DNA of 64,000 bases from Verrucomicrobiales bacterium (GTDB lineage: Bacteria > Verrucomicrobiota > Verrucomicrobiia > Verrucomicrobiales > Akkermansiaceae), in assembly GCA_038235225.1 (NCBI GenBank), contig JBBSUD010000002.1, positions 16,270 through 80,269 on the forward strand, read 5' to 3'. This document shows positions 14,654 through 43,040 of the stretch, piece by piece. Numbering within the stretch: the stretch's first letter is position 1; every line of letters begins with the position of its first letter. The translations under genes and the position numbers were made by a program. The notes beneath the pieces were generated by a model, which did not search any database, was not told the DNA's origin, and saw only the letters and a program-made list of their open reading frames with translations.

Positions 14654-14701
14654 TCGCCGCTACGGCGCAGGCCGCGACACTGCTTTGAAATTGCGGAAGT
14701 C

Positions 14702-14856: not shown

Positions 14857-14886
14857 GGGACCGATGATTGCCGTTGCGGCGGGGAC

Positions 14887-26622: not shown

Positions 26623-26712
26623 GGAGAGGTGGTCGAGTGGTCTATGGCACCTGATTCGAAATCAGACGTGGGGTAATACTCACCGTGGGTTCAAATCCCA
26701 CCCTCTCCGCCA
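26623..26712 (+). tRNA. tRNA-Ser(CGA)
   Basis: GGAGAGG/CCTCTCC acceptor stem, CGAGTGG D-arm, anticodon loop TTCGAAA, long variable arm, GGTTCAAATCC, encoded CCA; 90 nt. Confidence 0.95.
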
Positions 26713-27102
26713 AGAAACCCGATTCCACAAGGATTCCAGCGCTCCATGGCTAACGGATTCAGGGTTTCCGCGAATCTCTCGCAGCGCCCAAAGTGCGATG
26801 AAATGCGCGAAAATGCCTATTCTATTGCACCGTCCGTTGCACGGTGGAGTTCCGCTGCTGACGGTCCCACTGGTTGCTCGGTGACCGGGTCCGAATCGGG
26901 CTCGAAGGTCGATCATCGCACGGGGCGGGAGTTGCCGTGCAACACGCCGATGCGCGGTTGGATATTCGGACGATCTTTCCCGGTCCAAAAATTGCAAGGA
27001 GGGCCGGAACGCCATCGATGCCCCATGCGTCTCCCACGAAGGTTGTTGGGCGGAGAAATGGGGGGTGCGTTAACCATAGAACGCACCGTTGTTTTAGTAC
27101 TA

Positions 27103-28130
27103 TCAGGCCGGCTTGCCGAGTAGGCGGGTGGTCCGTCTCACTCCGAAGCGGCAGGCCGCTTGTTTCCACACGAGTCGGATTTCGTAGGTGTTGCCAGCGG
27201 CCAACTGCGAACTCGCGAAGTTCAACTGTTGCCAGCCGACTCTCTCCGCAGCCGCTTGATCACAGCAATCATCGACGACTTGCTGCCACAGCTTCCAGAC
27301 AGCGACGTGAGAAATGCCGAGTTCCCCCCCGATGCCGCGTTGTAACTTGTCACTCAACTTCAGTCGGGTGACGACAGCTCGTCGGAAAATGGTTCGGGTG
27401 TGCTGCACCATACGCTGACTGCGGAGAGGTTGGGGGCGACGGTTCTTTATCCAGCGGGGGCCATCGGATCCGCCCAAGAACCGGATCATCACGTCCATGG
27501 AGACGCTGTTATTCCGCGTTCCCTCGATCTTGGCGGGATCAAACTCGGCTTCGGCGATCTTCGGTAGCACTGCGGCCAAACCTTCTCCCCGGACGAGCCG
27601 CGCCAATTGCTGAAACGATCCCGCGCGGACGACCACCCGAGGACTCCACCCTTTCGCCGCGAGAAGCTCCGCGTAGGTCCGGGAGAACTGTCCGCCTGGC
27701 ATCAGCTCTCCACAGGGGTGTTTGGAGAAGAGGCTATCGATTCCCATATCGCCTTTCCAAGCCAGCATGGGCGCGGACATTGAGTAGCCGATTTTCCCGA
27801 GCGGATGGCATTTCATCCCGGCGGGAGCGGGGTCTTGACGGATGATCGCAAAATCCAACCTGCCGTCGGCGACGCAACGCGCTGCATCAAGGGTGCGGGA
27901 TTGCCCCAACTCCAGGACTACCTCGCCGAGAGCGCTTCGGCTCCCAGCCAGCTTTGGCAAGACGAGCCAGTCCACCACACTCGCGGATGCACCGATGCGC
28001 ACTTTCATCGGTCGCCCGGACATAGATTCCCGGAAATCATCCAACTCCGAGAAGTGTCGGCGGATAGTCCCGGCGAGCTGATGCCCTTCACCCGTGATCT
28101 CGGTGGTTTGGGGCGGTGCTGGTATCGGCT
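27103..28130 (-). pseudogene. LysR-family regulator relic: N-terminal HTH lost, C-terminus fused in frame to an unrelated HTH-like fragment
   Basis: Linker/effector domain ITGEGHQLA...VRIGASASVVDWLVLPKL...GRLDFAIIR...SFQQLARLVRGEGLAAVLP, with an in-frame TGA just upstream of the linker. Confidence 0.7.
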
Positions 28131-28413
28131 GCGATCATCTGATCCCGAACATTGGCAATCAGTGGCAGGGAGTTCGCGCCAATTACCCCGGGGGCGAAAT
28201 TGAACATGAGAATCGCTGCCACCCAAGCCGCCAGCCTTCCTTGCACGCACCAAGGATCCCCATCAGGATTTGAGGGAAATCGCGTTGAGCTCGGGCGCAT
28301 ATCGACGAGCGAACCCGCCTCGCCCGGGGATGTTCCGGCAGGGGCGTGATGCTCAACTTCGATTTCCACCGGCACTTTCTGATCCCCAAGACTTCCATTC
28401 CGGCTTCTAGATA

Positions 28414-30303
28414 GAGCCTGTCCCAGGAGCGGTGCTTTTTTATGATCGACGCAATAGGCGTTCAATCGAACACTTTCCGGATTCCGAATCGGTGAAAAGT
28501 TTGGCGAAAGTGGGGCTGGATTCGCTCATTTACGGGATTTTTCGCGTTTTCAGGTCCGGTGAGGACGCAGTGATCCCGGATCGACGGTGGCGATCCCGCT
28601 TCTGATGGCCCTGCGCTCCGCTATCAGCCCGCTCGCTCCATAGCCGCCCGCACCTTCTCTTCCTGTTCCGCTTTTCGCTTTTTCTCAGCCTCGGCCATGC
28701 GGGCTGCCACCCACAGGTTATGCGTGAGGACGGCCCAGCCGACGGCGACCTCCCGATGCTCGAAGCCTTTGGCTAACAGGGGACGACCGAGGAAACCATT
28801 CTTGAAAATGGCGATCCTTGCCTCGGTGCCGGCCCGGCGCTTGAGCCCCTCGCGGAAGCCTTTCTCGTTGACGAGCTTGTCGGAGAGTTCCTTCGGGTCG
28901 CGCGGACACAGGCCGTTGCCGATGCCTCGTTTTTCTAACATCGTCGTATTAACTTTACTGGCAAGACCGCGATCTCCCCAAACCTTGGCGATGGCGTGTT
29001 GTTGCTCGCCCACGAGCCGCTCAATGGCGGGCTTGATCAGCTTGGAGTCGCACGGGGTGTCTTGGTATAACTGGTAGTCGACGATGATGCCGTCGCCGTT
29101 TTCACCGAGCCAGAGTTTGTTTCCGAATTCGACTTTTGCACCAGCTTTGCCGCGTTGGATGACATTGATAGAGCTGTCATATAAACTCAGAATCTTGTCT
29201 TCATTGGCAACACTGCGACCACCAATGATGCGTTCGTGAGCTTGGTGGATGGCGGCAGGAAGTTGCTCCAACACGCTCTCAATGCGATGAACAATCTGTT
29301 GGGCTTGGCCTTCGCTCAGGTCGCTTTCCTCGCGGCGTGTCTTGAGTGCGTGGAGATGAGCCTTTGCGTGTTTGGCGATGGTATTGACGAAGGATTTCAT
29401 TTCGCGCAGCACTTTCTTGCGCTGTTTCTTGCCATCCTTCGCGTGAAATTTGGCGGTCATTTTCATGCACAACGTGTTCATTGTGCTGAGAAATGCGAGC
29501 GGTTCCTGAGGCATGCGGTTCTTGAGTCCATGCTGGCGGATGACAAGGGTGGCCTTCATCAAGGTGCGGGTGGCATCCCGCAATATCACCCAGTCCACGG
29601 GGAAATGAATGTCGGCCTTGAGGCAGGTGCTGTCGAAATAGATATTATCGAATCTGATAGGTTCTGCAAGTCCCAATGCTGCGGCAGGCGTCATTCCGGT
29701 GCTGTAATCCAGCACTTCTGATGCTAACAGCGCGGTGAGTTTCCCGTTGATCACCCGCACGGTTTGCTCGCTGGCCCAATGGCCGAAGCGGTCGCTGCTG
29801 CTCTTGGCGAACACCTTGACGCAATCGACCTCGCCGACATGCAGGAACCATTGAAGCAGCGAGCTGTCGGCGAGACGGGCGCAGAAGTCGCGGTGGTCGA
29901 GCCCCGTGAGTTGACGGGCGATGTTAGAGCGGAGTGCCAGGACGGTGCGAGAAGCGAAACGGTCGAGCTGTTTGGCACCGATGGCGTGGATATCGATCTG
30001 GCGCTCGGCGAGGACGAGGTTGAGGAATTCCTGCTCAAGGCCGGAGGAGCGGAGAATCGCGTCGATACGCTCGAACCGGGCGCGTTGCTCGCGGTAGTCC
30101 AAAGGACCGTAAACGCAAGGAAGTGCTGGACGAAGGGCGGGCTGGTAAGAGAAGGTGGTCACGGTTCGGGGCTGGATTTAGTCTGCTAACCAAATCATAG
30201 ACCCTGAATTTGGGGCATGGGAGCCTTTTTTGGCTCCCATGCCTTAATTTTTTGCCCGGCAAAGTGCTGTGCAACAAGGGGTTGTGGGGTTTGGGACAGG
30301 CTC
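28414..30303 (-). mobile_element. Intact 1890-bp insertion sequence (ISNCY family, probably ISDol1-like)
   Basis: 12-bp TIR GAGCCTGTCCCA (28414-28425) / TGGGACAGGCTC (30292-30303), 6-bp TSD TAGATA (28408-28413 and 30304-30309), and a single 512-aa DDE transposase. Confidence 0.9.
28624..30162 (-). CDS. DDE transposase
   Basis: YFDSTCLKADIHFPVDW, KILSLYD.S...I..GKAGAKVEFG, WGDRGLAS and RRAGTEARI.IFKN. Confidence 0.9.
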   Translation of the reverse strand: MTTFSYQPALRPALPCVYGPLDYREQRARFERIDAILRSSGLEQEFLNLVLAERQIDIHAIGAKQLDRFASRTVLALRSNIARQLTGLDHRDFCARLADSSLLQWFLHVGEVDCVKVFAKSSSDRFGHWASEQTVRVINGKLTALLASEVLDYSTGMTPAAALGLAEPIRFDNIYFDSTCLKADIHFPVDWVILRDATRTLMKATLVIRQHGLKNRMPQEPLAFLSTMNTLCMKMTAKFHAKDGKKQRKKVLREMKSFVNTIAKHAKAHLHALKTRREESDLSEGQAQQIVHRIESVLEQLPAAIHQAHERIIGGRSVANEDKILSLYDSSINVIQRGKAGAKVEFGNKLWLGENGDGIIVDYQLYQDTPCDSKLIKPAIERLVGEQQHAIAKVWGDRGLASKVNTTMLEKRGIGNGLCPRDPKELSDKLVNEKGFREGLKRRAGTEARIAIFKNGFLGRPLLAKGFEHREVAVGWAVLTHNLWVAARMAEAEKKRKAEQEEKVRAAMERAG

Positions 30304-30340
30304 TAGATATTGTTAGCCTGCCGACCCGGCTTCGGCTTCA

Positions 30341-31861
30341 TCACCGCTGCCATGCGATGATTTTTTTCATGATGGATGCGATGAATGGCGTGAGGCGGGC
30401 CTTGTTATAGAGATCCCCGGTTTTACGGATCGCCTCGGCTTGGGTGGGGTAGGGATGGATGCAGTTCGCGATTTTCCCGAGGCCGATGCCTTGGGTCATG
30501 GCAATGGAAATGGACGCAATCATATCCCCCGCGTTGGCGGCGACGATGGTGGCGCCGAGGATCTCGTCGCTGCCTTTCCTGACATGGATGCGGACGAATC
30601 CCTCGGTTTCGCCTTCGAGGATCGCTCGGTCCACACCGGACATCGGCTGGGTGAAGGTATCAACTTCGATGTCTTGTTCTCTGGCTTCTGCAGAGTTCAG
30701 CCCGATGCGTGCAAGCTCCGGCGAGGTATAAGTACACCATGGAATGACGAGGTCGCTATGTTTGACGCGACCGAAAAACAACGCATTGCGGACCACGGCG
30801 CGGGCCATGAAATCGGCGGCATGGGTGAATTGATAGGGAGAGCAGATATCGCCTGCGGCGAAGATGCGTTTGTGGGTGGTGCGGAAACGGTCGTCGATGG
30901 TCACGCCCTTTTTCGTGTGCTCCACACCGGCTTTTTCGAGATCGAGTCCTTCCACATTGGGTGCGCGGCCGGTCGCCACCAGGAGTTGATCCACGGTGAT
31001 GTCATAGCTGTCGTCTCCAGATTCCACGCGCATGCGGATGCCGCCATTGCCGCCGGGTGATAGTTTCAGTTTCCTGCCCGAGCCGAGGATTTTCACAGCA
31101 TCTCGGACAAGGTGCTTCTCGATAATTGCCGCGGCATCCGGCTCTTCCTTGTCGAGTATGCCGGATGAGGATTTGACGAGATAGGCTTCGGAACCGAGAC
31201 GCGCGAAAGCCTGCGCCATTTCGCAGCCGATAGGTCCCGCACCGATGACGCCGATGCGCTTCGGGCGTTCCGTTAGCGAGAAGATCGTTTCGTTGGTATG
31301 ATAGGAAACCGTGTCGAGTCCCTCGATCGGCGGCGCGGAAGCGCGTGCGCCGGTGCAGATGACAGCTTTGGAAAAATGCAGCTTCGCTCCGGCGACTTCG
31401 ATATGGGAGGAATCGATAAACTTTCCTTGGCCCAAGAATACGTAGATGCCGAGCGAGGTGTAGCGCTTCACCGAATCGTGGGGTGAAATGTCGCTGCGGA
31501 GCTTTCTCATGCGTTGCATGACTTTTGCGAAATCCACCTCGGTCCCTAGCGGCACGTTCACGCCGAAGCCCCCGGCATCTCGCACGGCGGCGGCGGCGCG
31601 GGCCGAGCTGATGATCGCCTTCGATGGCACGCAGCCGACATTCAGGCAGTCGCCACCCATGAACTGGCGCTCGATCAACGCGACCTTCGCCCCCAGCCCC
31701 GCCGCGGCGGATGCGGTGACAAGCCCGGCGGTGCCAGCACCTATGACGACGAGATCGTATTTCCCGGAAGGCACCGGGTTCGTCCAATCGGCGGGATGAA
31801 CGTTGGCCACGAGCTTCGCATTATACTCGTCATCGGGCTCCATACGGTGGGGCGTGCTCAT
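30341..31861 (-). CDS. MerA/LpdA-like FAD-dependent pyridine nucleotide-disulfide oxidoreductase (no C-terminal Cys-Cys)
   Basis: VIGAGTAG, GGDCLNVGCVPSK, GAGPIGCEMAQ, ATGRAPN, IFAAGD and IHPYPTQAE. Confidence 0.9.
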   Translation of the reverse strand: MSTPHRMEPDDEYNAKLVANVHPADWTNPVPSGKYDLVVIGAGTAGLVTASAAAGLGAKVALIERQFMGGDCLNVGCVPSKAIISSARAAAAVRDAGGFGVNVPLGTEVDFAKVMQRMRKLRSDISPHDSVKRYTSLGIYVFLGQGKFIDSSHIEVAGAKLHFSKAVICTGARASAPPIEGLDTVSYHTNETIFSLTERPKRIGVIGAGPIGCEMAQAFARLGSEAYLVKSSSGILDKEEPDAAAIIEKHLVRDAVKILGSGRKLKLSPGGNGGIRMRVESGDDSYDITVDQLLVATGRAPNVEGLDLEKAGVEHTKKGVTIDDRFRTTHKRIFAAGDICSPYQFTHAADFMARAVVRNALFFGRVKHSDLVIPWCTYTSPELARIGLNSAEAREQDIEVDTFTQPMSGVDRAILEGETEGFVRIHVRKGSDEILGATIVAANAGDMIASISIAMTQGIGLGKIANCIHPYPTQAEAIRKTGDLYNKARLTPFIASIMKKIIAWQR

Positions 31862-32469
31862 GTTTCCGTTATGTTCGGTCCTTCGGAATCATCAATTTTT
31901 CCCGACAGCGCGCGCTTGGCGATTTTGGTGATCCAGACGGTTACGATGATGGTGGCGACCAACCCGATTCCATAAAACACCTTCTGTGAGGTCGTCGTTT
32001 CGCTGGCGGCAACTTTAGCGATCGAGCCGAGATAAACATAAAGAATAGTCACCGGAAGCATGCCGATCCACGATGCACCGACGGCCTGCCAAAAGCCGAT
32101 CTTCGTGAGGCCGAGCGCGTAGTTGAGAAATGTGAATGGGAAAACGGGCGATAGCCTTAGCAGCATAATCATCTTCCAGCCTTCGCGACCGACCGCTTCG
32201 TCGATTGCCTTGAATTTCGGCTTATCCTTTAGTTTTTTATCGATCCAATTCCGCAGTGCGAACCGACCTAGCAGGAAGCTCACCGCGGCGGCGAGAGTTG
32301 AGGCGACGGAAACGAGCAGGGTTCCCTCTACCAGTCCGAAAATCGCCCCGGCGGAGAGTGTCAGGATACTGCCCGGCACGAATGCGACGGTTGCGCCCAC
32401 GTAAAGTAGGACAAAAAGCACGGGCGCCCAGATGCCTTGGGCCTGGACCCAATCGAGGATGTGTTGCAT
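31858..32469 (-). CDS. TVP38/TMEM64 (DedA/VTT) family membrane protein
   Basis: VPGSILTLSAGAIFG...LLRLSPVFPFTFLNYALGLTKI...IGMLP.TILYVYLG. Confidence 0.92.
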   Translation of the reverse strand: MQHILDWVQAQGIWAPVLFVLLYVGATVAFVPGSILTLSAGAIFGLVEGTLLVSVASTLAAAVSFLLGRFALRNWIDKKLKDKPKFKAIDEAVGREGWKMIMLLRLSPVFPFTFLNYALGLTKIGFWQAVGASWIGMLPVTILYVYLGSIAKVAASETTTSQKVFYGIGLVATIIVTVWITKIAKRALSGKIDDSEGPNITET

Positions 32470-32475
32470 GCGGAG

Positions 32476-33777
32476 TTATAGGTAAGTTATGGATCGAACC
32501 CGCGCGATCCACCGGGGCGGGACGCTCAGGAAATAGGCAGCAAGCATCAATTGATGTCGAAGGAATGTGCGCACGATGCCGCCCGTTTCCCAGCGCCGCG
32601 GCGATGTCAAAGCTGCCTGCGGCGCCGTCCGGACCGGGCCAAGCCGCTTGAGCCGGCGGACCAGATGGAGGTCCTCCATCGCCGGCCAATCGGGAAATCC
32701 TCCGAGGTGGCGGAAGATGCTCCGGCGGATGAACAACCCTTGGTCGCCATAAGGCATACCTAGCAGATCGCAGCGCAGATGCACGAGTGACTCGATCAAG
32801 GGCGCGGCAGCGAGATCTCCCGCAAGCTGGAATCGGAATGCGCCTGCGCTCGTCCCGGGCTTCTGCAATATCCGGCCCACTACTTCACCATAGTCTAGCG
32901 GCGGCAAAGTATCCGCATGGAGAAACAACAGGAACTCGCCCGTCGCCATGGCGGCGGCCACATTCATTTGCGTGGACCGCCCTTTCGGAGTTTCGATCAC
33001 GCGGACGCCCGCTTTTCCGGCTATCGCTTTGGTTTGGTCCGTGCTGCCTCCGTCCGCGATGATGATTTCGTGCGGCGGCGATTCCAAGAGCCGCTCGAGA
33101 AGTATGGAAATCCAAGTAGCCTCATTCAGTGTGGGAATGATGACAGAGAGCGAATTTCCCACGGTGAGCGCGGCATTTGCAGCCGGGAGATCGTCCGGCG
33201 TGTCCACATCCGGGCGGGCGTCCAAAAGAGCGACATGCGCTCCGCACGCGGCGGCGGCAGCCAGCGATTGATTTAGAACCTGCGGTCCGCCCCATTCGAT
33301 GTTAGTGAAAATTCCGGGACACGGTTTATTCAGACCGACGAGATAATAGCCGCCATCCGCCGCGGGGCCGAAAACCAGATCCGCGCGTTCCAGCGCTTGG
33401 AATGCCTTCGCGAGAAGCGGCTCGTCGATCGACGGGCAGTCGGTTCCGGTGATGACCACGCGGCGGGCGCCATCGGCAAACGCCTGCTCCACTGCGGCGT
33501 GCAATCGGGCTCCCAAATCGCCATTTCCCTGCACCCGGCAATCGATATCTCCCAACCATATCTTTCCTTCGACGGCGGTCCCGCCTTCCAAGCGAATCTG
33601 CAAGCGGGTGCCGGGATGCATCATCGCGTAAGAAGAGGCCCGACCTATGGCATGCCGTGCGAGGCGGTCGTGGAAATCCGCAGCACCAATCGTGCCCAGC
33701 GCGGGGATCAATCGTGTCTTGTTCCGGCCTTCACAGGGAAGGCGCGTCATCACGATGATGGTGTCTTGCCGCTTCAC
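32476..33777 (-). CDS. Fused arsenosugar-cluster transferases: TIGR04282 (DUF2064) plus TIGR04283 (GT2)
   Basis: N-half GRNKTRL...QGNGDLGARL...TGTDCP...GPAADGGYYLVGL...DVDTPDDL. C-half SVIIPTLNE..DGGSTD..GRSTQMN..LFLHADT..PYGDQGLFIRR..MED..SPRRWE. The GTG start at 33777 overlaps the DUF547 stop. Confidence 0.88.
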   Translation of the reverse strand: MKRQDTIIVMTRLPCEGRNKTRLIPALGTIGAADFHDRLARHAIGRASSYAMMHPGTRLQIRLEGGTAVEGKIWLGDIDCRVQGNGDLGARLHAAVEQAFADGARRVVITGTDCPSIDEPLLAKAFQALERADLVFGPAADGGYYLVGLNKPCPGIFTNIEWGGPQVLNQSLAAAAACGAHVALLDARPDVDTPDDLPAANAALTVGNSLSVIIPTLNEATWISILLERLLESPPHEIIIADGGSTDQTKAIAGKAGVRVIETPKGRSTQMNVAAAMATGEFLLFLHADTLPPLDYGEVVGRILQKPGTSAGAFRFQLAGDLAAAPLIESLVHLRCDLLGMPYGDQGLFIRRSIFRHLGGFPDWPAMEDLHLVRRLKRLGPVRTAPQAALTSPRRWETGGIVRTFLRHQLMLAAYFLSVPPRWIARVRSITYL

Positions 33778-34565
33778 TGTTTGTTGAGATCCCAATTGTA
33801 GTCGGTATATTTGATGCCGAGTCCGCCGCGGAGGATGACTTTGCCTTGTTCATCGTTGAAAAGCGGTGCCACGAATTTTTCGACAGAGCCGGACTTGCCG
33901 GTAAAGTCCTGTTTGAACCACTTGAAGATCGGCGAGAGATAGAGCACTCCGCTTTTAGCATCGACTCGGTTCTTCGAGCTATCGCCCAAGAAAATCCTGC
34001 CTTGCTCATTGAGTTGAGGATCGAGCTTGGAGGCTTGGTAGGCTTCCGCACGCAGGGACGGACAACCGATCGATGCACAATTAATGGCGAAGTGGATGCG
34101 CGGGTCATTGAACTTCGGTCGGAGCAGATCGTTCTCGATATAGTCGAGGGTTTGCTTCTTTCCGAACAGCCGGACGACGGGTTGCTTCCATGGCCCGCTG
34201 AAAAGGCCGCCGATGTCTTTGATGCTGTCCACCGGATAGTGATCGATTACGAGCTTGAGAGTCGCGGCGTTATAGAGATTGATGAGATATGCCATCCGCT
34301 CATCGCGGGGCCAGCCGTTGAAGCTGGATTCGGACACGGCAGCAAGCGAATCCAGATAAACATCGAGCGGTTTTGGATTCCTTTTCAATCCTGCGTAATC
34401 GACCTTCTTGCCTTTCACATGCGCCCCGAGAATCAAAGTTAAGGCGGAGTGCGATCGGTCGAAATCCTGGCGGGTGTTGGCAATGGTTTGGAGCTCCTGT
34501 GCCTGCGATACCACGGTGAGTATGGGGAACAAAGCGAGAGCGGTGGCGAATGTGAGATTTTTCAT
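33774..34565 (-). CDS. DUF547 domain secreted protein
   Basis: Signal peptide; AYLINLYNA.T, LDYIENDLLRP, DPRIHFAINCASIGCP and YLSPIFKWFKQDF. Confidence 0.9.
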   Translation of the reverse strand: MKNLTFATALALFPILTVVSQAQELQTIANTRQDFDRSHSALTLILGAHVKGKKVDYAGLKRNPKPLDVYLDSLAAVSESSFNGWPRDERMAYLINLYNAATLKLVIDHYPVDSIKDIGGLFSGPWKQPVVRLFGKKQTLDYIENDLLRPKFNDPRIHFAINCASIGCPSLRAEAYQASKLDPQLNEQGRIFLGDSSKNRVDAKSGVLYLSPIFKWFKQDFTGKSGSVEKFVAPLFNDEQGKVILRGGLGIKYTDYNWDLNKQ

Positions 34566-34571
34566 GATGAT

Positions 34572-35531
34572 TCAGGCATTAGCTGTTTCCAGCGCGCCGC
34601 TGCAACTGCTGCCGTGGCCGGCGGTGCAGCCGAAGCAATGATTTGCGGTGAGGATCGGGAGGTCCGCCATCGAGTCCGGAGTGATGTCCCAGAGATAAAG
34701 TTTTTGGTCATTGCGCTTTTGTTGCATGCGGAGCATTTGGTTGAAATCGCAGTCGAAGACCTCGCCCTCGTAACCGATATTGATGGTGGACCGGCACATA
34801 AGTCCCCCGACCGTGGCGGGGTTGAAACTATTCGCCAGCAATTCCATATAGTAATCCCACTGTCCGTGCTCGCGGAGGTCCACCGCGAAGCGGGCGATCG
34901 GGAGATTCGTGATCGCAAAGAGGCGGGTGAAAACGATGCCGTAGCGTTTCTTTAGCTCGTCCTTGTAGTCCGCTTCAAGTTCTGCTTGGTCGGGCGGCAG
35001 CTTCGCGCCGATGGGATTGTAAACGAGGGTCAGCGGGAGGCGGGTGCCATAGCCAGCGGCATTGAGTTTCTTCAGCGCGGAAATGCTCTTTTGGAAAACT
35101 CCGTTGCCGCGCTGGGAATCGACATTGTCTTCCAGATAGCAGGGCAGGGATGCGACAACTTCCACTTCATGCCGGGCGAGAAACTCCGGCAGATAGGCAT
35201 GGCTTTTCGTCTCGATGATCGTGAGATTGTTTCGGTCGATGACATGCGAACCGACCGAGCGGGCCGTCTCAACGAAATACCTGAAATGCTCGCTGATTTC
35301 AGGCGCGCCGCCGGTGATGTCCACGGTCGCGGGCCGATGTTCCACAATCCAGGCGCCGACTTTGCGGGCAGTTTCCCGATCCATCATCTCGGTGCGGGTC
35401 GGGCCGGCATCGACGTGGCAGTGGGTGCAGGTCTGGTTGCATTTGCGACCGACATTGATCTGCAGCGTCTCGAAGCGGCCGCGATCCAGCGGAACTTTGT
35501 TTTGGTGGAGAAGTGTCTGGAAGTTATTCAT
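34572..35531 (-). CDS. arsS: Arsenosugar biosynthesis radical SAM protein ArsS (TIGR04167-type)
   Basis: TLQINVGRKCNQTCTHCHVDAGP (CxxxCxxC), DITGGAPE, ASLPCY, LVYNP, GLMCR, DCDFNQML and HCFGCTAGHGSSC. Confidence 0.92.
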   Translation of the reverse strand: MNNFQTLLHQNKVPLDRGRFETLQINVGRKCNQTCTHCHVDAGPTRTEMMDRETARKVGAWIVEHRPATVDITGGAPEISEHFRYFVETARSVGSHVIDRNNLTIIETKSHAYLPEFLARHEVEVVASLPCYLEDNVDSQRGNGVFQKSISALKKLNAAGYGTRLPLTLVYNPIGAKLPPDQAELEADYKDELKKRYGIVFTRLFAITNLPIARFAVDLREHGQWDYYMELLANSFNPATVGGLMCRSTINIGYEGEVFDCDFNQMLRMQQKRNDQKLYLWDITPDSMADLPILTANHCFGCTAGHGSSCSGALETANA

Positions 35532-35581
35532 GAGAGAAGTGAATCGGTGACCGCTTTGGATGTGAGGATCGGGCGGCGTTT

Positions 35582-36409
35582 CTATTCGGATATGTTTTTC
35601 CGGAGCGGCGGGATGCGGGTGAATGCTTTTGCAGATGGCGGATCCTCATCGAGTTTCGAGAAGACGCGCTGGCAGGAATCGCTCTCGAAGAAGGCGTCGC
35701 AGCAGGCGGATTCGAGGATTTCTCCGTGGCCGTTGTCCGTGCAGAGGCAGGCGATCCAGTCGGTCAGGCGGCGGGCTTGGTCGAGATTGTGGGTGACGAG
35801 GATGACGCTGCGGGTGGCTCGCATACTCAGAATCCCCGCCTCCACGGCTTCCGCAGCGCGCGGATCGAGGGCGCTCGTCGGTTCGTCCATGAGCACGATT
35901 TCCGGATCGACGGCCAAGGTGCGGGCAAGACATAGCTGCTGCTGCTGGCCGATGGACAGACGGCGCGCGGGTTCCGTTAGCCGGTCCTTCACCTCATCCC
36001 AGAGAGCGGCTTCGCGGAGCGATTTTTCGATAAGCTCGCCGCGGTCGCGTTTGTTTAGTCGGCGGAGCCGACGGGCACCGAAGATGACGTTATCTGCGAT
36101 GCTGGCGGGAAACACGGCGGGCTGTTGGAATATCATGCCGATGCGCTCGCGGAGGGCGTCGGGATCGACGGCGCGGTCCAGGATTTCGCAGCCATGGAAG
36201 CGGATGCTGCCGGTGACCCGGAAGCCGGGCTGCAGCTCCAGCAGTCGGTTGATGGATCGCAGCAAAGTGCTCTTGCCCGCGCCGGACGGGCCGAGGATGC
36301 CGAGCACTTGTCCGGCTTCGAGCGTTAGATTGACCGACCCGATGATGGCGCGGCCGCCCACGGAGACGCCGAGGTTGCGGATTTCCAGGATGGGGGATCG
36401 ATCAGACAT
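35582..36409 (-). CDS. pstB: PstB-like ABC transporter ATPase with Cys-rich C-terminus
   Basis: GPSGAGKSTLLRSINRL, IGMIFQQP, LREAALWDEVKDRL, LSIGQQQ.LCLAR, MDEPTSALDP and VTHN. Confidence 0.85.
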   Translation of the reverse strand: MSDRSPILEIRNLGVSVGGRAIIGSVNLTLEAGQVLGILGPSGAGKSTLLRSINRLLELQPGFRVTGSIRFHGCEILDRAVDPDALRERIGMIFQQPAVFPASIADNVIFGARRLRRLNKRDRGELIEKSLREAALWDEVKDRLTEPARRLSIGQQQQLCLARTLAVDPEIVLMDEPTSALDPRAAEAVEAGILSMRATRSVILVTHNLDQARRLTDWIACLCTDNGHGEILESACCDAFFESDSCQRVFSKLDEDPPSAKAFTRIPPLRKNISE

Positions 36410-37256
36410 GGTTGGCGGCATCGTGGAATTTCCTGCGGAAGGGTATAGCTAACAGACTTGCCAGGGTAACCAAGGAAACAAGCACCAGCGCGGTGCCCCA
36501 GAGATTGGTCCGGCTGCTTTCCTGAAACGAATCCTGGGCGAGGATGAATATGTGATAGGGAAGCGCGAGTATGGGTTGTTCCTTGATGCCGATGGGGATG
36601 GTGGCGCCGGAAAAGATGGTGGCGACGAAAAGGATCGGCGCCGTTTCCCCGGCGGCTCTGGCGAGGCCGAGCAAGGTGCCGCTAACGAGCGAGGAAGCGC
36701 AGTGTGGCATGATGATACTTCGGACGATCCGTCCGCGGCGCAATCCCAATGCGAACGCGCTATCGAGATACCGCGGCTCGATCGCGCCGATCCGCTGGGC
36801 GGCCGCTATGGCGATGGTGGGAACGATCATGATGCCTAGCAGGATGCCGCCCGCGAGCCAGGATTTCCCCCAGTCGAAGATGCGGGTGAAGACTAGCAGA
36901 CCGAGGATACCGAAGATGATGGAAGGTATCGCATTGAATAACTGAAGCACGAACCCTAACAGGCGCTGGCGGCGGGATCCGAGTGGCAGGAGAAATGAAT
37001 GGACCAATGCAAGTGAGATGGCGATGGGCAGCGCGACCGCCGCGGCGGTGGAGATGAGGATGATGGTGCCCACGATCTGCCAGAGAATGCCGCCGCTCGC
37101 ACCGGCTTCCGAGGTGGCGGTGGAAATGAAGTTCCAATCCACCACGTCCCGGCCTTTCCAAATGAGGACTGCCGCTACCGTGAGGGAAAACAACAACACC
37201 ACCGATGCGGCGGCAGCGGTGAGGATCGACGTCAATGATGCTAACGATTTTCTCAT
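36402..37256 (-). CDS. pstA: PstA-like ABC permease
   Basis: IPSIIFGILGLLVF, LAGGILLGIMIVPTI, LGLARAAGETAPILF and LPYHIFILA. Confidence 0.88.
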   Translation of the reverse strand: MRKSLASLTSILTAAAASVVLLFSLTVAAVLIWKGRDVVDWNFISTATSEAGASGGILWQIVGTIILISTAAAVALPIAISLALVHSFLLPLGSRRQRLLGFVLQLFNAIPSIIFGILGLLVFTRIFDWGKSWLAGGILLGIMIVPTIAIAAAQRIGAIEPRYLDSAFALGLRRGRIVRSIIMPHCASSLVSGTLLGLARAAGETAPILFVATIFSGATIPIGIKEQPILALPYHIFILAQDSFQESSRTNLWGTALVLVSLVTLASLLAIPFRRKFHDAANHV

Positions 37257-38167
37257 GAGGAAATTCTCCCGATGCGGCGCAGCAGGGTGCCGGTGGCGTC
37301 GAAAAGCGCGGATAGAACAAGTAGAATCAGTCCGAGAGAAAGCATGGCTCCCCAATGCAGCGGCGTGCCGAGCGCAATGTGGGTTTCGGGTCCGCCGAGC
37401 TTGCTGGTAAGTGTTTGGCCGGGCTCGATGAGCGGCCGGAGGCTGAAGAGTTTTTCGGGAAACTGATTGTCCAATCGGCCCACCACGAGGAAGACGGCGA
37501 TCGTTTCACCTAGAGCGCGGCCGGTGCCTAACAAGGCAGCGCCGGTGATGCCGGGCCATGCCTGGGGAAGCACCACATGTATTACTGTTTCCGCACGGCT
37601 CAGCGCCAGACCGCGGGCGGCGATGCGCTGCTCCTGCGGGACTCCGCGGAGTGCGTCTTCGGAGAATGTGGTGACGGTTGGGAGTATCATCACCGCGAGC
37701 AGGACGCCGGCGGTTAGAAGCATGTCGCCACTGAGTATATCGAATGCGATTAGCCGCTCGGCCATCCACTCGCGCAGGAAAATGACACCGAAAAGGCCGT
37801 AAACAACCGATGGCACGGCAGCCAAAAACTCGACGGCGGTCTTCACCGGCAACCGCAGCCGGGGAGTGAGAAATTCGGATATGAAAACCGCTGCCGCGAT
37901 GCCGACCGGTGCGGCGAGGACGAGGGCGATCACCGCGACGACGAGACTGCCATAGATCATGCCCGCGGCACCGAAGATGTTGTCCCGATAGAACCACTCG
38001 CGTCCTTTGACCAGCTCGCTACCGATCTTGGAAATCGCGGGCCACGCCTGCTGGATCCAGAGAGCGAGAACCGCGAGCAGGCCGAGGAAAAATCCGCTGG
38101 AAATCGTCCATACGCCGACAGTGACGGCATCGGGCCGCCGCCTCGCTGTCAGCTCGTGAGCGCTCAT
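37253..38167 (-). CDS. pstC: PstC-like ABC permease
   Basis: MIYGSLVVA..APVGIAAAVFISE, VEFLAAVPSVVYGLFG, AVMILPT, GRALGETIAV and TLTSKL. Confidence 0.88.
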   Translation of the reverse strand: MSAHELTARRRPDAVTVGVWTISSGFFLGLLAVLALWIQQAWPAISKIGSELVKGREWFYRDNIFGAAGMIYGSLVVAVIALVLAAPVGIAAAVFISEFLTPRLRLPVKTAVEFLAAVPSVVYGLFGVIFLREWMAERLIAFDILSGDMLLTAGVLLAVMILPTVTTFSEDALRGVPQEQRIAARGLALSRAETVIHVVLPQAWPGITGAALLGTGRALGETIAVFLVVGRLDNQFPEKLFSLRPLIEPGQTLTSKLGGPETHIALGTPLHWGAMLSLGLILLVLSALFDATGTLLRRIGRISS

Positions 38168-39021
38168 TGTTTCTTAAGATCCGCTAGAGAAAGATAGCCG
38201 TGCTTGTGAACCAGCTTCTGACCTTCCGGGCCTAGCAGGAAATCGATCAGTGCCTTGGCATGACCGGCTGGCTCGCCATTGGTGATGACCCATAGCGAAC
38301 GGCTCAGCGGATAGTCACCCGCGAAGATATGTGCTGCGGTCGGTTCTACGATTTTGTCGTCATCAAGTTCCACGGATAGGGCGAAAACCTTGATTCCATC
38401 GACCCACGCGGCGGACAGTTGGGAAAGCGCGCCGCGGCTGCCGGCCACCTTGTTGCGCGCTTCCTCATTCGCTCCGACTTCTGGGTGCGCGACGGACGGC
38501 GCTTTGTCGGCCTTGCCGTAGAGCCAGTTCGCGAAGACCTCCCAAGTGCCGCGTCCCGGCTCCTTGTTGAAAAATGCGATCCTGCGGTCGGGGCCGCCGA
38601 TCTGCTTCCAGTTGGTTACTTTTTTCTCGTAGATCCGTTGCATGGTTTTGCGGGAAATCGATTTCACCCCGCCATCCCAGACATCTTTGGAAACGATCAT
38701 TGCCACCGCGTCCTCGCCGATTTTCACCGGTGTGAAAACGATGTTCGGATACTTCATATGGTCGGCTTCATTGAGCGGGCGGGATGACATGGCCATATCC
38801 ACCCGGCCGTCGCCGAGTGCGGAAATCCCGCCGGAACTGCCGCCTTGGGTATCCACTTGGATGGTGATGTTCTTTTCCTTTTTAAGGATTTCCGCAGCTT
38901 CGGAAACCACGGGATTCACCGTGGTCGATCCATTGACGCGAACGATGTCTTGTGCGGAGACAAACGTACTCGCTGTGGCGAAAGCGAATGCGAGTAAAGG
39001 GAGGGATTGCATGAATTTCAT
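38164..39021 (-). CDS. pstS: PstS-like periplasmic oxyanion-binding protein
   Basis: Signal peptide; GSTTV, GGSSGGI, MSSRPL, IGEDAVA, IYEKKVTNWKQIGGPD and DYPLSRSLW. Confidence 0.85.
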   Translation of the reverse strand: MKFMQSLPLLAFAFATASTFVSAQDIVRVNGSTTVNPVVSEAAEILKKEKNITIQVDTQGGSSGGISALGDGRVDMAMSSRPLNEADHMKYPNIVFTPVKIGEDAVAMIVSKDVWDGGVKSISRKTMQRIYEKKVTNWKQIGGPDRRIAFFNKEPGRGTWEVFANWLYGKADKAPSVAHPEVGANEEARNKVAGSRGALSQLSAAWVDGIKVFALSVELDDDKIVEPTAAHIFAGDYPLSRSLWVITNGEPAGHAKALIDFLLGPEGQKLVHKHGYLSLADLKKQ

Positions 39022-39040
39022 CAGTTGAATCGAGTTGATC

Positions 39041-40204
39041 TCAGCAGCAGCCGCCGGCGTCGCAGCAGTTCGATGCGGCGGTGGTGACATGATAATCGCG
39101 GCCCTTGGTTTCCTGCGGGTGGCGGACAGCGGTGCGGTTGCAATCGAAGGGCGCCGCGTCTGCCAGCGGTATGTCTGTTAGCGGATCGATGAAAGAGAAG
39201 TAGCCGGAATACGGCGCTTTTTTGTATAAGTTGTATGTCTTGTCGCAGACCGCATAGCGCTTGCCGCGCTCCATGGCGTGGCCGTCGTCAACGAGGACTT
39301 TCAGGAAAGGGCCGTTGTAAATGACCGCCTGATTCCGCTCGAAGCACGGACCTTGTTTTCCTTTCCACGCTTGGATCGTGACTGAGCGGAACTCGATCCC
39401 TTCGACCGTTTGCCATGGCGTTTCGTCGCGCTTCAGGATTTCGATTCCATGAAATCCCGCATCTGCAAACGCTTTGAGAAACCCTTCCTCGGTATAGGCG
39501 CCGCTGATGCAGCCGCTCCAGAGATGGGGATCGTCCTGGAGATGGCTCGGGATTTCCTCGTCGGATACGATGTCGGAAATCACCGCCCGGCCGCCAACTT
39601 TCAGGACGCGGAAGATCTCCTCGAAAAGCTGACGCTTCAGGTGGTTCTCCACGAGATTGAGCACGCAGTTAGAGACTACGGCGTCGATGCTGTCGCTGGC
39701 GACGAGCGGGTGCTTCACGCGGAGATCGGCGGCGAGCGCGTCGGCCGCGAGATAGGAATTCGCGCTGGAAATCGGATTCCGGGCGAGTTCGCGGTCGAGA
39801 ATTTCCAAGTCGAGCGCGAGATCTTGGATGCGGCCCTTGCGGAACTCGACATTCGCGTGGCCGATATTTTCCGCGACGATCGGCGCATTCCGGCGGGCGA
39901 CTTCCAGCATGTCGTCGGTCATGTCCACGCCGATGACGCGGCCGGTCGGGCCGACGACCTGGGACGCGATGAAGCAGATTTTCCCGGTCCCCGAGCCGAG
40001 ATCGAGCACGGTCTCGCCGGGATGCAGGTGCTTCGACGGGTCGCCGCAGCCGTAGTCCTTTTCGATGACCTCGGCCGGAATGGCCTTGAGAAACTGCGGA
40101 TCGTAATCGACCGGGCAGCACAAAGCGGCCTCGGGGGCGTGGGCGGCGGCGGCGTAGCGATCGCGGGTGGCGGCTTCGGACGAGGTGCTGGCTGGGGCGA
40201 TCAT
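39041..40204 (-). CDS. arsM: Arsenite S-adenosylmethionine methyltransferase (ArsM)
   Basis: LCCP, YGCGDP, VLDLGSGTG, VIGVDMT, VSNCVLNL and WSGCISGA, i.e. the four conserved ArsM Cys positions. Ends in CCDAGGCC. Confidence 0.9.
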   Translation of the reverse strand: MIAPASTSSEAATRDRYAAAAHAPEAALCCPVDYDPQFLKAIPAEVIEKDYGCGDPSKHLHPGETVLDLGSGTGKICFIASQVVGPTGRVIGVDMTDDMLEVARRNAPIVAENIGHANVEFRKGRIQDLALDLEILDRELARNPISSANSYLAADALAADLRVKHPLVASDSIDAVVSNCVLNLVENHLKRQLFEEIFRVLKVGGRAVISDIVSDEEIPSHLQDDPHLWSGCISGAYTEEGFLKAFADAGFHGIEILKRDETPWQTVEGIEFRSVTIQAWKGKQGPCFERNQAVIYNGPFLKVLVDDGHAMERGKRYAVCDKTYNLYKKAPYSGYFSFIDPLTDIPLADAAPFDCNRTAVRHPQETKGRDYHVTTAASNCCDAGGCC

Positions 40205-40466
40205 GGTTGTGGGAAAATCTGGCCGGGATGCTGGCTTGGGCATCGGTTCGCTTGGGATAACGAAATCTCCAGATATAACGGATTTGCGTGCGCAAAAATC
40301 GGATTGCTCGCTGGAGGATCGCCATGCGTCCCGGTCGGCAGGAAATCTGAGAGCACGCGAACGCCCGCTCTATTCCTCGAAGATCCGGTTTGCCGCTTGT
40401 CGGCGGGATTTGTCCGGAGACTCCGCCGGGCGTGGACACGCGGATACCGGTGTGGAATCGTGGAAG

Positions 40467-41570
40467 ATGCCTGACACGAAAAGCCGGATCGATCTCGGCT
40501 GGGTCATCTGCCAAGGCGACCGCGATCCGGGCAATCAGACGCGCGAGATGGTCACGCGGACCTCCGCGGTTTTTCTGGAGGAAATGAACCGCGAATTTTC
40601 CCGCTACGACTGGCGCGGGAAGGTCACCTGGCGGCGAACGCCGGGGCGCGGCGGGCAGGCCGATCCGCTGGAGCTGCTTGAGATCGGCGTCCGGGAGAAG
40701 GTGAGGAATGGCTGGGACTTCGCGATGGTCGCCACCGGCGCGGAACTGCTTGGCAGGCGCTTGGTCGAGCTGGAGGCAGCGCCCTCGTCCGCGCTCGAAT
40801 GCGGCGTTTTCTCGGTCTGGAGACCCGGCGACGAGGAAATGGCGGACGCGCGGGTCTTGGAAATCCTCCGCTACCTGCTCGGCAGCATGCTCGGACTCGA
40901 GCGTGGCGTGAACGACGGCCCTTTCACCGAATCCGAGCGGGAGCTGGTTCGCGGCCGGCTGGAAGACATCGGCGACGAGCGGCTGGAGGAGAGGCGGAAC
41001 AATTGGAATGTCATCGATTTCTACCTGCGAACCTTGCTGGCCGACGCCCGCGGCCTCTTCGGCGACGTGCTGGGCTATCATCCGTGGTGGCAGCCCTTCC
41101 GCTTCGGCCGGCTTACCGCTGCGGCGTTCGTCACCTCGCTGCTGTCTTTCTTGGGCGCGGAAGTATGGGAACTCGGCGTGGGCGCCTCGCCGGCGCTGCT
41201 CGCGGCCGGCGCGTTTTTCTCCGTCCTCGGTGCGATGTGGTATCTCTACCGCGGGCAAAACCTGGCCGAACTGACCGGCGGCATCGCCCTCAACGAGCAG
41301 GTCGCCCGTAGCAAACTGGTGATGATTTTCTGTCTCTGGATTGGCATGGCCTCGCTGTGGCTATTGCTTTTCGCGAGCTGCTGGTGCCTCGCAGGCATCC
41401 TTCCGCGCGAGGTCGTCCAAGGCTGGGCCGGCGAGACTCTCGACCTATTCGCCCGCGCCCGCTTCGCCGCTTTTGTCTCGACGCTCGGCACCCTCGCCGG
41501 CGCTCTCGGGGGAAATCTGGAGGACGAAGGCAGCTTCAAGGCGCACTTCTTTTTCGATGACGAAGTCTAG
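40467..41570 (+). CDS. Hypothetical membrane protein (about 4 C-terminal TM segments)
   Basis: 367-aa ORF with typical codon usage and hydrophobic C-terminal helices. Confidence 0.7.
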   Translation: MPDTKSRIDLGWVICQGDRDPGNQTREMVTRTSAVFLEEMNREFSRYDWRGKVTWRRTPGRGGQADPLELLEIGVREKVRNGWDFAMVATGAELLGRRLVELEAAPSSALECGVFSVWRPGDEEMADARVLEILRYLLGSMLGLERGVNDGPFTESERELVRGRLEDIGDERLEERRNNWNVIDFYLRTLLADARGLFGDVLGYHPWWQPFRFGRLTAAAFVTSLLSFLGAEVWELGVGASPALLAAGAFFSVLGAMWYLYRGQNLAELTGGIALNEQVARSKLVMIFCLWIGMASLWLLLFASCWCLAGILPREVVQGWAGETLDLFARARFAAFVSTLGTLAGALGGNLEDEGSFKAHFFFDDEV

Positions 41571-41810
41571 CAAGCCGTCCGGGCGGGGGTCGGGCATCAA
41601 TCCACCGGGAGCCAGCCTCCCTCGAAATTCCGTGCAATCCTGGTTTTTCCGGCCTTCGAAAGGCATCGACGGAAATGTCCGCGGAGGCTCGAATCGCCCT
41701 TTCTATCGAGCTGTTCGCTCGGGTAGATTGCCGCGGCCGCAGCCCCCCGCCGCCATGATACCGACCGGCGCGCGGCCGGACGGCTCCCGTAAGTTTTCAT
41801 TTTCCGGTTC

Positions 41811-43040
41811 ATGAGTTCCTTCCACGATCAGCTTTATTCCGAGATCGATGCCGCCCGGAAACTGGTTGCTGGATTTGCCAGCCGTCACGGACGGAAACCG
41901 GCTGGCACGCCTCAAGTGCCTGGCGAACCGAACCGCCAGGCCCAAGAGGAATCGGCATCGGCTGAAATCGCGGCGCTCGCGGCGGAAGAGGAACTCTTCA
42001 CGATCCAAGCCCGGGAGCGGGCGGAAAACCGCGCGAAGGCCCGGGCGGAAAAGAACGCCGGGGCCGGCGGAGCGCAAAATGCCAGCGCGGTCCCGGGACC
42101 GGCGGGGTCGCGCTGGAAAGCGGCGGCCATCTTGAAAGGCCTGGCGAAACTCCGTATCAAAGAGCGGTCCGCCGCCGAGGATTTGATTCGCCAGGCGCAC
42201 GAGGTCGGCAACGACGACCTGCTGCATGCCGCGGATTACCGCCCGGAGCAAGCCGCCGCCCCGGTCCGGGGGATGTGGGTCCCTTCACTCGGAGCGGCCC
42301 AAGTCTGGTACTTCACGTCCCAAGGAACGCGCTGCGGGCCGGTGAGCTTCACGGAGCTCCGGAAGATGGCCTCCAGCCGGGTGCTGGACCCGCGGATCGA
42401 CATGGTCTGGAAAGAGGGAATGGAAGGATGGAAACAGGCGGGCCTCCTCGACGGCCTGTTCGAGCGGAGGAGTATTCCAGCCGATTCCCCGGCCAGGCGT
42501 GGGGGGAGAAAACTCAGGACGTTCGCCGCATTGCCGACGGACCTTACCGCCGCGCTGGCTTCGAAGTACCTGAGCTGGCCCGGTGCCGGTCGCGGGCTTC
42601 TTTGGTTCGGCCTGCTGCTGTTCCCGCCGCTGTGGAGCCAGCTACTTGGGTGGGGCGGTCCCGCCTTGGTCGCCGCATTGGGCAGCTCGGCGGTAGCCAA
42701 GCTCCTGCCGATCGCAGCCTTTGTGCCTGCCGCGGTCTTGATTTATCTGGTCCTCATGCGGCTCGTAAATTTGGGGATGAGCCGCTGGTGGGCGGTGATG
42801 CTGGCGATTCCCGTAGTGAACTTGTGGGTCGGGTTCCGCTGCCTGATCTGCCCGTCCGGCTATGGCTATCACCGCAAAATGGACCGGACCGGAATCGTGA
42901 TCGTCCTTGCGATCGTGATCATGGCACCGGGGGTTTGGTTTCTCCACCGGAAGCACCCGAATCTGCTCTCTCCCGCGCGCCTCCGGACCACTCTGCATCG
43001 CCTGATCGAACGAGAAAGATCGGCGACTCCCGACCGGTGA
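41811..43040 (+). CDS. GYF_2 (DUF4339) plus DUF805-like membrane protein
   Basis: WYFTSQGTRCGPVSFTEL...MVWKEGMEGWKQAG (GYF_2) and MRLVNLGMSRWW..LAIPVVNLWV..CLICP.GY. Confidence 0.75.
   Translation: MSSFHDQLYSEIDAARKLVAGFASRHGRKPAGTPQVPGEPNRQAQEESASAEIAALAAEEELFTIQARERAENRAKARAEKNAGAGGAQNASAVPGPAGSRWKAAAILKGLAKLRIKERSAAEDLIRQAHEVGNDDLLHAADYRPEQAAAPVRGMWVPSLGAAQVWYFTSQGTRCGPVSFTELRKMASSRVLDPRIDMVWKEGMEGWKQAGLLDGLFERRSIPADSPARRGGRKLRTFAALPTDLTAALASKYLSWPGAGRGLLWFGLLLFPPLWSQLLGWGGPALVAALGSSAVAKLLPIAAFVPAAVLIYLVLMRLVNLGMSRWWAVMLAIPVVNLWVGFRCLICPSGYGYHRKMDRTGIVIVLAIVIMAPGVWFLHRKHPNLLSPARLRTTLHRLIERERSATPDR

Follow-up and report, generated by a model that had tools for sequence, protein, structure and literature searches.

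The stretch of DNA analysed here (the window) is 64,000 nucleotides long and belongs to contig JBBSUD010000002.1 of the Verrucomicrobiales assembly GCA_038235225.1, from a bacterium of soil or water. On its minus strand, at 30341-40204, ten genes of the same orientation form an operon in which the four genes of a Pst-like ATP-binding cassette (ABC) importer are placed between arsM, coding for an arsenic methyltransferase, and arsS, coding for an enzyme of the radical S-adenosylmethionine (SAM) type. We found that these pst genes constitute a distinct, arsenic-linked clade apart from canonical PstS. Our favoured explanation, held tentatively and built on sequence comparisons, is that two arsenic modules have become joined in this operon, whose importer may carry an arsenic oxyanion, either arsenate or a related arsenical. 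The first module would consist of arsM and the importer; the second would be the recurring ArsS-centred arsenosugar set, in which arsS is accompanied by a DUF547 protein, transferases of TIGR04282/04283, a membrane protein of the DedA/VTT type and a disulfide reductase with FAD. The locus is a variation on known kinds, namely the Pst sets of arsenic islands, ArsM/ArsS clusters and the transporter of the bisenarsan cluster. The initial annotation knew of no description of a Pst-type importer embedded between arsM and arsS in a verrucomicrobium; both the Pst sets of arsenic islands and a Streptomyces transporter of the same clade have been published (PMC3834237, PMC4943196).

A distinct clade of Pst-like importers

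The PstS paralogue of the operon, a periplasmic binding protein with a PBP_like_2 domain (38164-39021 (-)), reaches 175.3 bits with the profile TIGR02136, whose cut-off is 206.6, and 39 with TIGR00975 (cut-off 205). Among 12 other genomes carrying such a paralogue, the paralogues obtain about 149 to 180 bits with TIGR02136 versus 191 to 287 for the canonical PstS residing in the same genomes, a better-scoring canonical PstS being present in 10 of the 12. The window protein shares 30% identity with the canonical PstS of its own genome and 48 to 83% with about 1,800 database proteins, and the public annotation of every clade member is "phosphate ABC transporter substrate-binding protein".

The binding pocket gives the clearest separation. 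In canonical proteins the loop R-x-x-x-S-G-T contacts the phosphate (R135, S139, G140 and T141 in E. coli), and an alignment with the solved PstS 4gd5 showed that its version of this loop, R-E-D-G-S-G-T, is changed in the window protein into K-E-P-G-R-G-T (residues 153-159, codons at 38545-38565 (-)), so that at the phosphate contacts Arg is replaced by Lys and Ser by Arg. The motifs K-E-P-G-R-G-T, GGSSGG and PEVGxNEExRNKV are invariant in the 21 clade members examined (21/21), and R-x-x-x-S-G-T is found in each of the 11 canonical PstS that were correctly extracted from these genomes. In a maximum-likelihood tree, a branch with 100/100 support and a length of 2.29 lies between the paralogues and canonical PstS, with a clean separation except for one mis-extracted row; two rows of the tree, canon_G404a and canon_G410, are wrongly extracted open reading frames (ORFs) and account for the two changes, instead of one, in the group test.

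Among the other components, the PstC-type permease (37253-38167 (-), sharing an ATGA overlap with pstS) scores 219.5 with TIGR02138 and passes the cut-off of 196.45. The PstA-type permease (36402-37256 (-), with an ATGA overlap with pstC) stays below its own at 152.9 with TIGR00974 (cut-off 193.45), as does the PstB-type ATPase (35582-36409 (-)) at 259.1 with TIGR00972 (cut-off 343.2). The signature of this ATPase is LSIGQ (35945-35959 (-)); LS(V/I)GQ is present in 47 of 48 clade PstB, versus LSGGQ in both canonical PstB of the window's genome. Its C-terminal part contains a cluster of five Cys (35672-35749 (-)), whose pattern ACxC..ESACCD..C recurs in 23 of the 48 clade PstB, whereas neither canonical PstB of the genome has it; at least four Cys are found in 27 of the 48.

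We collected 98 loci of the clade, of which 10 were taken from reference genomes, 5 were obtained by exact look-up, 1 came from the phylum scan and 80 came from metagenomes, the others being the window and one further locus; none of them contains a PhoU homologue. Searching with the patterns NKEPGRGT and PEVG[AGS]NEE had yielded the 80 metagenome loci. In the literature consulted, we found no description of the clade's rebuilt loop, of the altered ATPase with its Cys cluster, of the three-Cys ArsR described below or of the association with arsenic across phyla.

Arsenic genes around the clade

For the neighbourhood analysis, genes within 4 kb were clustered without bias and then annotated with Pfam, and counts were made on the 61 loci having at least 1.3 kb of upstream flank. 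ArsR-family regulators are present at 26 of these loci, ArsM at 20 and ArsS at 9, and at least one of the three at 45 (74%). The steadiest partners of the paralogue are therefore ArsR and ArsM, not ArsS. The arrangement recurs in Verrucomicrobiota, in Planctomycetota, in a metagenome-assembled genome (MAG) labelled "Deltaproteobacteria" and in Actinomycetota.

The ArsR proteins adjacent to the paralogue belong to a single subfamily, marked by an N-terminal Cys together with LD(L/F)GCC(T/S)FRFD at the C-terminus, hence three Cys in total, and lacking the classical CVC site. This subfamily stands beside the paralogue in 35 loci (for example L071:1994-2296 (+) and L017:9660-9929 (+)). Its three-Cys arrangement resembles that of other ArsR types which sense As(III).

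Other neighbours recur: a DUF2064 protein of TIGR04282 type, a metallophosphoesterase and two periplasmic proteins, namely a tandem rhodanese and a protein resembling protein tyrosine phosphatases (PTP) with HCX5R and CxxCH motifs. The last one, of about 302 amino acids with a signal peptide, lies beside ArsR-pst loci (L049:2246-3151 (-), L091:6857-7768 (-), L067:7113-8066 (-)) and has a PTP-type HCX5R loop (VHCHHGMHRG) together with a C-terminal CGACH motif for haem c attachment; such a pairing, in the periplasm, of the oxyanion-binding fold of phosphatases and arsenate reductases with a cytochrome c motif is unusual. The tandem rhodanese has about 307 amino acids, a signal peptide and CYCGTSREGS as its active-site loop, and is encoded divergently from the ArsR-pst unit in 11 loci, among them L104:8481-9401 (-), L114:353-1279 (-), L084:13552-14481 (-) and L037:10435-11424 (+). 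A subset of loci (L044, L057, L070, L108 and L115) presents the order metallophosphoesterase (CNCGYTDPRDN), DUF2064, arsM, pstSCAB and arsS; with its additional hydrolase, this order may represent a more complete form of the pathway. The Luteolibacter locus L016, of arsM-pstSCAB-arsS type, has directly after arsS a 449-aa TIR-domain protein (14539-15888 (+)) in place of the DUF547/transferase set. In L014, the closest metagenomic relative, a gene of the AhpC/TSA-redoxin family (9180-9974 (+)), which the window does not have, is inserted between arsM and pstS and is possibly a supplier of thiol reductant. Three neighbour clusters (unk271, c15 and c17) were rejected, as reading of the sequences revealed antisense artefacts of high-GC genes.

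A one-sided link with ArsS

In the 401 genomes sampled for the phylum, ArsS is present in 19 and the PstS paralogue in 2. The initial annotation proposed a dedicated transporter of the arsenosugar pathway. Of the 18 other ArsS loci found in 400 genomes of the phylum, none has the paralogue within 10 kb (0/18), and the transporter does not regularly belong to this pathway. What remains of that proposal is an importer that is not Pho-like, from a clade strongly tied to arsenic genes across phyla. The converse comparison is different: ArsS is found in 7 of the 12 paralogue-carrying genomes, versus 18 of 400 in the phylum (p=8e-7), and ArsM of the window's type in 7 of 12 versus 7 of 400 (p=7e-9); in three of the 12 carriers, arsM-arsS are located on a different contig from pst. 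Thus, the paralogue tends to accompany the ArsM/ArsS pathway, and the pathway has no need of the paralogue. The complete genome containing locus L032 has arsM, the TIGR04282/TIGR04283 fusion, arsS, DUF547, VTT and the reductase in the window's order and without pst, and for this reason we consider the ArsS set as an independent module.

Canonical phosphate and arsenic systems of the same genome

A separate canonical pstSCAB-phoU, which the initial annotation had only envisaged, is present in the genome as a porin-pstS-pstC-pstA-pstB-pstB-phoU operon split across contig ends (C242:2840-4473, C277:2-2394, C19:2-3623). Its porin resembles OprP, its PstC is unusually long at more than 520 amino acids, and pstB is present as two tandem genes, in addition to phoU. 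Several Pho-box-like repeats, TTGTGACA/TGTCACA, precede this operon; none of the TTGTGACA type is found before arsM or inside the ten-gene locus. Another contig (C77:8690-11070) carries an arsenic resistance operon of conventional type, with arsR (having the CVC site in ALCVCEL), an uncharacterised ~195-aa ORF, acr3 and an arsC of the low-molecular-weight PTP type. The existence of these separate systems indicates that the window operon is neither the phosphate system of the cell nor its basic arsenic resistance.

Possible functions of the importer

If the importer carries arsenic, the pathway might operate in the following way. An arsenic oxyanion, most likely arsenate, would be transferred from the periplasm to the cytoplasm and reduced by the ArsC encoded elsewhere in the genome. 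ArsM would then convert As(III) to dimethylarsenite, to which ArsS would add the 5'-deoxyadenosyl group, and the transferases and membrane proteins would complete and place the product. After ArsS, the fusion of DUF2064 and a family 2 glycosyltransferase (GT2) could transform 5'-deoxy-5'-dimethylarsinoyl-adenosine (DDMAA) into arsenosugar, with the DedA, DUF547 and reductase proteins taking part in membrane handling, as their recurrent linkage suggests. The Cys cluster of PstB may bind As(III) and thereby throttle the import; in methionine and molybdate importers, regulatory domains give feedback of this kind.

Arsenic import is favoured by the invariant replacement of the phosphate contacts and by the lack of phoU and of any Pho signal, as well as by the placement of the clade in two arsenic-consuming pathways and its enrichment with the rare ArsM/ArsS pair. 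It also agrees with the general rule that importers of precursors usually sit inside the gene cluster of the consuming pathway. Several observations weigh on the other side. The lack of the importer at 18 of 18 other ArsS loci indicates that arsenosugars can be made without it, PstC remains above the equivalog cut-off of its family, and the operon contains no arsenate reductase. In addition, the 80 metagenome loci were retrieved with patterns, and the survey therefore describes a clade defined by its motifs and is no test of the motifs. The loci in which ArsR accompanies pst (26 of 61) often lack an adjacent arsenic-consuming enzyme, and without such a sink an As(III)-induced import of arsenate would amount to a positive feedback loop. 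Finally, for phosphate uptake with a protective role, a precedent is at hand in the pst1 operons of arsenic islands (PMC3834237).

This precedent, in which pst1 is under ArsR control, leads to the alternative we take most seriously, although we regard it as rather unlikely: the importer would be a phosphate transporter excluding arsenate, switched on when As(III) is in the cytoplasm and co-expressed with enzymes that dispose of arsenic. A three-Cys ArsR directly upstream, as at 26 of the 61 loci and often without a consuming enzyme nearby, is sensible for protection and poor for arsenic import, the best matches of all four components are Pst families with PstC over its cut-off, and induction of the Streptomyces homologue occurs when arsenate is high and phosphate low (PMC4943196). 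Against these points, the Arg and Ser with which R-x-x-x-S-G-T contacts phosphate are both invariantly replaced, none of the 98 loci has phoU, the known pst1 sets probably do not belong to this clade (PstS of the plasmid collection considered below having at most 33% identity), and the enrichment at the genome level is with the rare ArsM/ArsS pair, not with general resistance genes. As reportedly described by Elias in 2012, the known binders that discriminate phosphate highly keep the canonical pocket. The proposal of the initial annotation that arsenic is scavenged for biosynthesis can be upheld as a possibility and no further. Much of this evidence would equally agree with a phosphate importer that excludes arsenate; the importer may supply feedstock or give protection.

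It is improbable, in our judgement, that the ligand is another anion of arsenic metabolism, such as methylarsonate, 2-hydroxyethylarsonate, thioarsenate or antimonate, or sulfate or thiosulfate for thiol supply. The rebuilt pocket gains an Arg and extra Gly (GGSSGG), suggesting a different or larger ligand, and the periplasmic tandem rhodaneses and the PTP-like HCX5R/CxxCH protein recur divergently beside ArsR-pst loci. Furthermore, uptake of 2-hydroxyethylarsonate leads to bisenarsan in S. lividans (PMC12159101), where the original annotation of SLI_1100/1101 was that of phosphonate transporters (PMC4943196). Yet the As(III) needed by ArsM and ArsS is inorganic or methylated, and arsenate would be its simplest source; sulfate and thiosulfate have their own well-known families of binding proteins. 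Least probable by far is an ordinary second phosphate transporter, functionally unconnected with arsM and arsS and lying between them by chance: the public annotation as phosphate transporter and the frequency of several Pst sets in bacteria would agree with it, but overlaps of 4 and 8 nt and short gaps locate the genes inside one transcription unit, the arrangement recurs in Verrucomicrobiota, Planctomycetota, the "Deltaproteobacteria" MAG and Actinomycetota, and arsenic neighbours occur at 74% of loci with a genome-level enrichment of p<1e-6.

Returning to arsenic import, a bolder version, which we advance with somewhat greater reserve, is that the whole clade could be a dedicated high-affinity importer of arsenate or arsonate, gated by As(III) through the Cys of PstB, and that at least four phyla would acquire arsenic deliberately as feedstock for organoarsenicals. 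If so, the candidate products would be arsenosugars and arsenolipids, methylarsenicals and bisenarsan. To our knowledge, every known route of arsenic entry is accidental, arsenate passing through phosphate transporters and arsenite through aquaglyceroporins; this would then be the first transporter known to have evolved for bringing arsenic in, some bacteria would want arsenic as a substrate, and organoarsenical synthesis at nanomolar environmental arsenic would be explained. Should the clade be an arsenate-excluding phosphate importer, its rebuilt pocket would represent a second, independent solution to the discrimination between phosphate and arsenate. In addition, NKEPGRGT is a clean genomic marker for arsenic-handling loci that are now annotated merely as "phosphate ABC transporter".

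The operon, its other genes and its surroundings

The ten identities proposed in the initial annotation were recovered with Pfam and NCBIfam profile searches, with one relabelling (the last gene), and the organization it described as a tight minus-strand operon was borne out. From arsM to the reductase gene, with the most plausible starts, the junctions measure +19, -4, -4, -8, +50, +6, -4, +6 and -4 nt, that is, gaps of 6 to 50 nt and overlaps of 4 to 8 nt. For pstS we retained the ATG at 39021, giving 285 amino acids as in homologues; a longer ORF extending to 39090 is unlikely.

The arsM gene (39041-40204 (-)) encodes a protein with Methyltransf_31/25/11 domains. Using as criterion the four Cys of CmArsM (C44, C72, C174 and C224) and the SAM-binding fold, the four catalytic Cys were found in the expected motifs (C29/30, C53, C180 and C232). 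The protein remains below the cut-offs of three curated models (331 vs 500 for NF040538, 206 vs 263 for NF008823, 134 vs 400 for NF038099); it is of a long type with a Cys-rich C-terminus, a subtype outside the coverage of these three models, and its orthologues with 65 to 83% identity adjoin pst paralogues or arsS in other genomes. ArsS (34572-35531 (-)) scores 426.8 with TIGR04167 for a cut-off of 300, contains the CX3CX2C motif as CNQTCTHC at residue 31 and has the DUF3641 domain (PF12345, 176 bits). Since enzymes of this family adenosylate DMAs(III) to give DDMAA (PMC13598754), the window ArsS probably adenosylates dimethylarsenite, a function taken from the family.

Downstream of arsS come a DUF547 protein with a signal peptide (33774-34565 (-), PF04784, 86 bits), whose domain is found beside arsS in 7 of the 18 other ArsS loci of the phylum, and a fusion of TIGR04282 (DUF2064, nucleotidyltransferase-like) with TIGR04283 (GT2) at 32476-33777 (-), both parts being over their cut-offs (185.9 vs 134 and 232.1 vs 182) and fused likewise in L032. 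No paper tying DUF547 or TIGR04283 to ArsS was found in the literature consulted. They are followed by a VTT/DedA (TVP38) membrane protein (31858-32469 (-), PF09335, 107.6 bits), a type which adjoins arsS in L026 and L032 and is fused to the reductase in L013. The last gene (30341-31861 (-)) encodes an FAD pyridine-nucleotide-disulfide oxidoreductase matching NF004991, an uncharacterised family of FAD oxidoreductases (766 for a cut-off of 620), with the redox motif CLNVGC at residue 72. It had been called a MerA-like reductase; an assignment as MerA was rejected, with a TIGR02053 score of 366.6 for a cut-off of 454.45 and a tail, ...IIAWQR, without the C-terminal Cys pair. The idea of a self-contained pathway did not stand either: the operon has no arsenate reductase, ArsC is on another contig, and we saw no sign that this flavoprotein reduces As(V).

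As stated in the initial annotation, phoU, arsR, arsC and acr3 are not found within the locus, nor is any motif resembling the Pho boxes of the genome's canonical pst operon. The region upstream of arsM (40205-40520 (-)) was without recognised regulator site in repeat, Rfam and k-mer comparisons. The Rfam scan of the window returned three tRNAs only, and the locus contained neither a riboswitch nor a leader; this region and the arsR promoter region on C77 have no k-mer of at least 10 in common, a single shared 9-mer being uninformative; and no conserved element was visible when the regions upstream of arsM were compared by eye across orthologous loci. In two close relatives, a pair of extracytoplasmic function (ECF) sigma and anti-sigma factors lies upstream of arsM, and it is absent from the window. 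The flanking ORFs 28624-30162, 40167-41570, 41341-41814 and 39669-41258 had no Pfam match, and no regulator or reductase was recognised among them; a molybdopterin oxidase was found neither among the ten operon genes nor in the scanned flanking ORFs.

After the stop of the last gene, the operon is closed by a strong GC-rich hairpin of 16 bp (30210-30247). The 512-aa ORF without Pfam match at 28624-30162 (-) lies just past this hairpin; as the T-run of the hairpin is on the plus strand, the actual gene in this place may be on the opposite strand. The GC content is 0.57-0.61 across 26623-40300 versus 0.64-0.66 in the flanks. The beginning of this low-GC stretch near a tRNA gene (26623-26709), together with one genome of the same genus in which arsS and the PstS paralogue are both missing, suggests a horizontally acquired island.

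Comparison with known systems

Canonical PstSCAB-PhoU systems, of the E. coli type or of the TIGR02136 type (PDB 4gd5), share with the window's importer the layout of a four-component type I ABC importer and the fold families; the GSTT and GSS motifs of PstS are retained and PstC is over the equivalog cut-off. The importer differs from them in its K-E-P-G-R-G-T loop, its LS(V/I)GQ signature and its five-Cys PstB, with PstS, PstA and PstB below the cut-offs; it also lacks phoU and Pho-box-like repeats and coexists with a canonical set in its own genome.

A second Pst set among arsenic genes is likewise found in the aio arsenic islands of Agrobacterium tumefaciens 5A and Herminiimonas arsenicoxydans, where a second operon, pst1, with ArsR-regulated pstS1 and phoU, was proposed to ensure a more specific phosphate uptake (PMC3834237). 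Like pst1, the importer described here comes on top of a housekeeping pst operon located far away, and control by an ArsR-family regulator is likely. The pst1 sets carry phoU and aio genes and probably a PstS of canonical type, whereas the partners here are arsM, arsS or the three-Cys ArsR. An indirect test of the relation used a plasmid collection: its proteobacterial-type PstS have at most 33% identity to the window PstS, and the known pst1 sets are therefore probably not of the paralogue clade. Periplasmic binders of arsenite and arsenate exist in AioX and ArrX, which are related to the binders of phosphorus oxyanions; they belong to the PhnD (phosphonate-binder) family and are sensors for two-component systems, not components of transport.

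The ArsM-ArsS system of Synechocystis sp. PCC 6803 shares with the window the four Cys of ArsM and an ArsS over the TIGR04167 cut-off with CX3CX2C. Unlike in Synechocystis, four transporter genes part arsM from arsS here and five further genes follow. We know of no importer in the cyanobacterial arsenosugar system.

The closest parallel comes from Streptomyces. The only plasmid-borne member of the clade in the plasmid collection is found in a Streptomyces arsenic island, in the order arsO, acr3, arsR, arsC, trxB, trxA, arsR, binder, fused permease, ATPase, and homologues of independent phosphoglycerate mutase (iPGM) and of the synthase for 5-enolpyruvylshikimate-3-phosphate (EPSP). Around a chromosomal member from the S. 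coelicolor/lividans group, a thiamine pyrophosphate (TPP) enzyme, ArsR, a major facilitator superfamily (MFS) transporter, a glutamine amidotransferase (GATase), a molybdopterin oxidoreductase, EPSP synthase, iPGM, a small ORF, binder, permease, ATPase and two ArsR follow each other, an order that agrees with SLI_1091-1103 as published for the arseno-organic (bisenarsan) cluster. The binder of this cluster has 44% identity to the window PstS (44 to 47% for the Streptomyces set) and keeps K-E-P-G-R-G-T; SLI_1099-1101 belong to the same clade as the window importer, grouping with the paralogues on the 100/100 split. In this version, the permeases are fused in one protein of 603 amino acids, and ArsR genes flank the transporter inside an organoarsenical biosynthetic cluster whose C-As bond is made by homologues of EPSP synthase and phosphoglycerate mutase, not by SAM enzymes. 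Arsenate at 500 uM, with phosphate at 3 uM, induced the binder gene SLI_1099, and an earlier annotation of the ABC genes SLI_1100 and SLI_1101 had made them phosphonate transporters (PMC4943196). The enzymes that begin the pathway of this cluster are proposed to use arsenate (PMC4943196, PMC12159101), added 2-hydroxyethylarsonate is taken up by S. lividans and converted to bisenarsan (PMC12159101), and regulators of the ArsR family bind in the cluster and target transporter genes (bioRxiv 10.64898/2026.06.06.730586). Together, the presence of the clade in the ArsM/ArsS operon and in the bisenarsan cluster indicates that this transporter is embedded in two chemically unrelated organoarsenical pathways.

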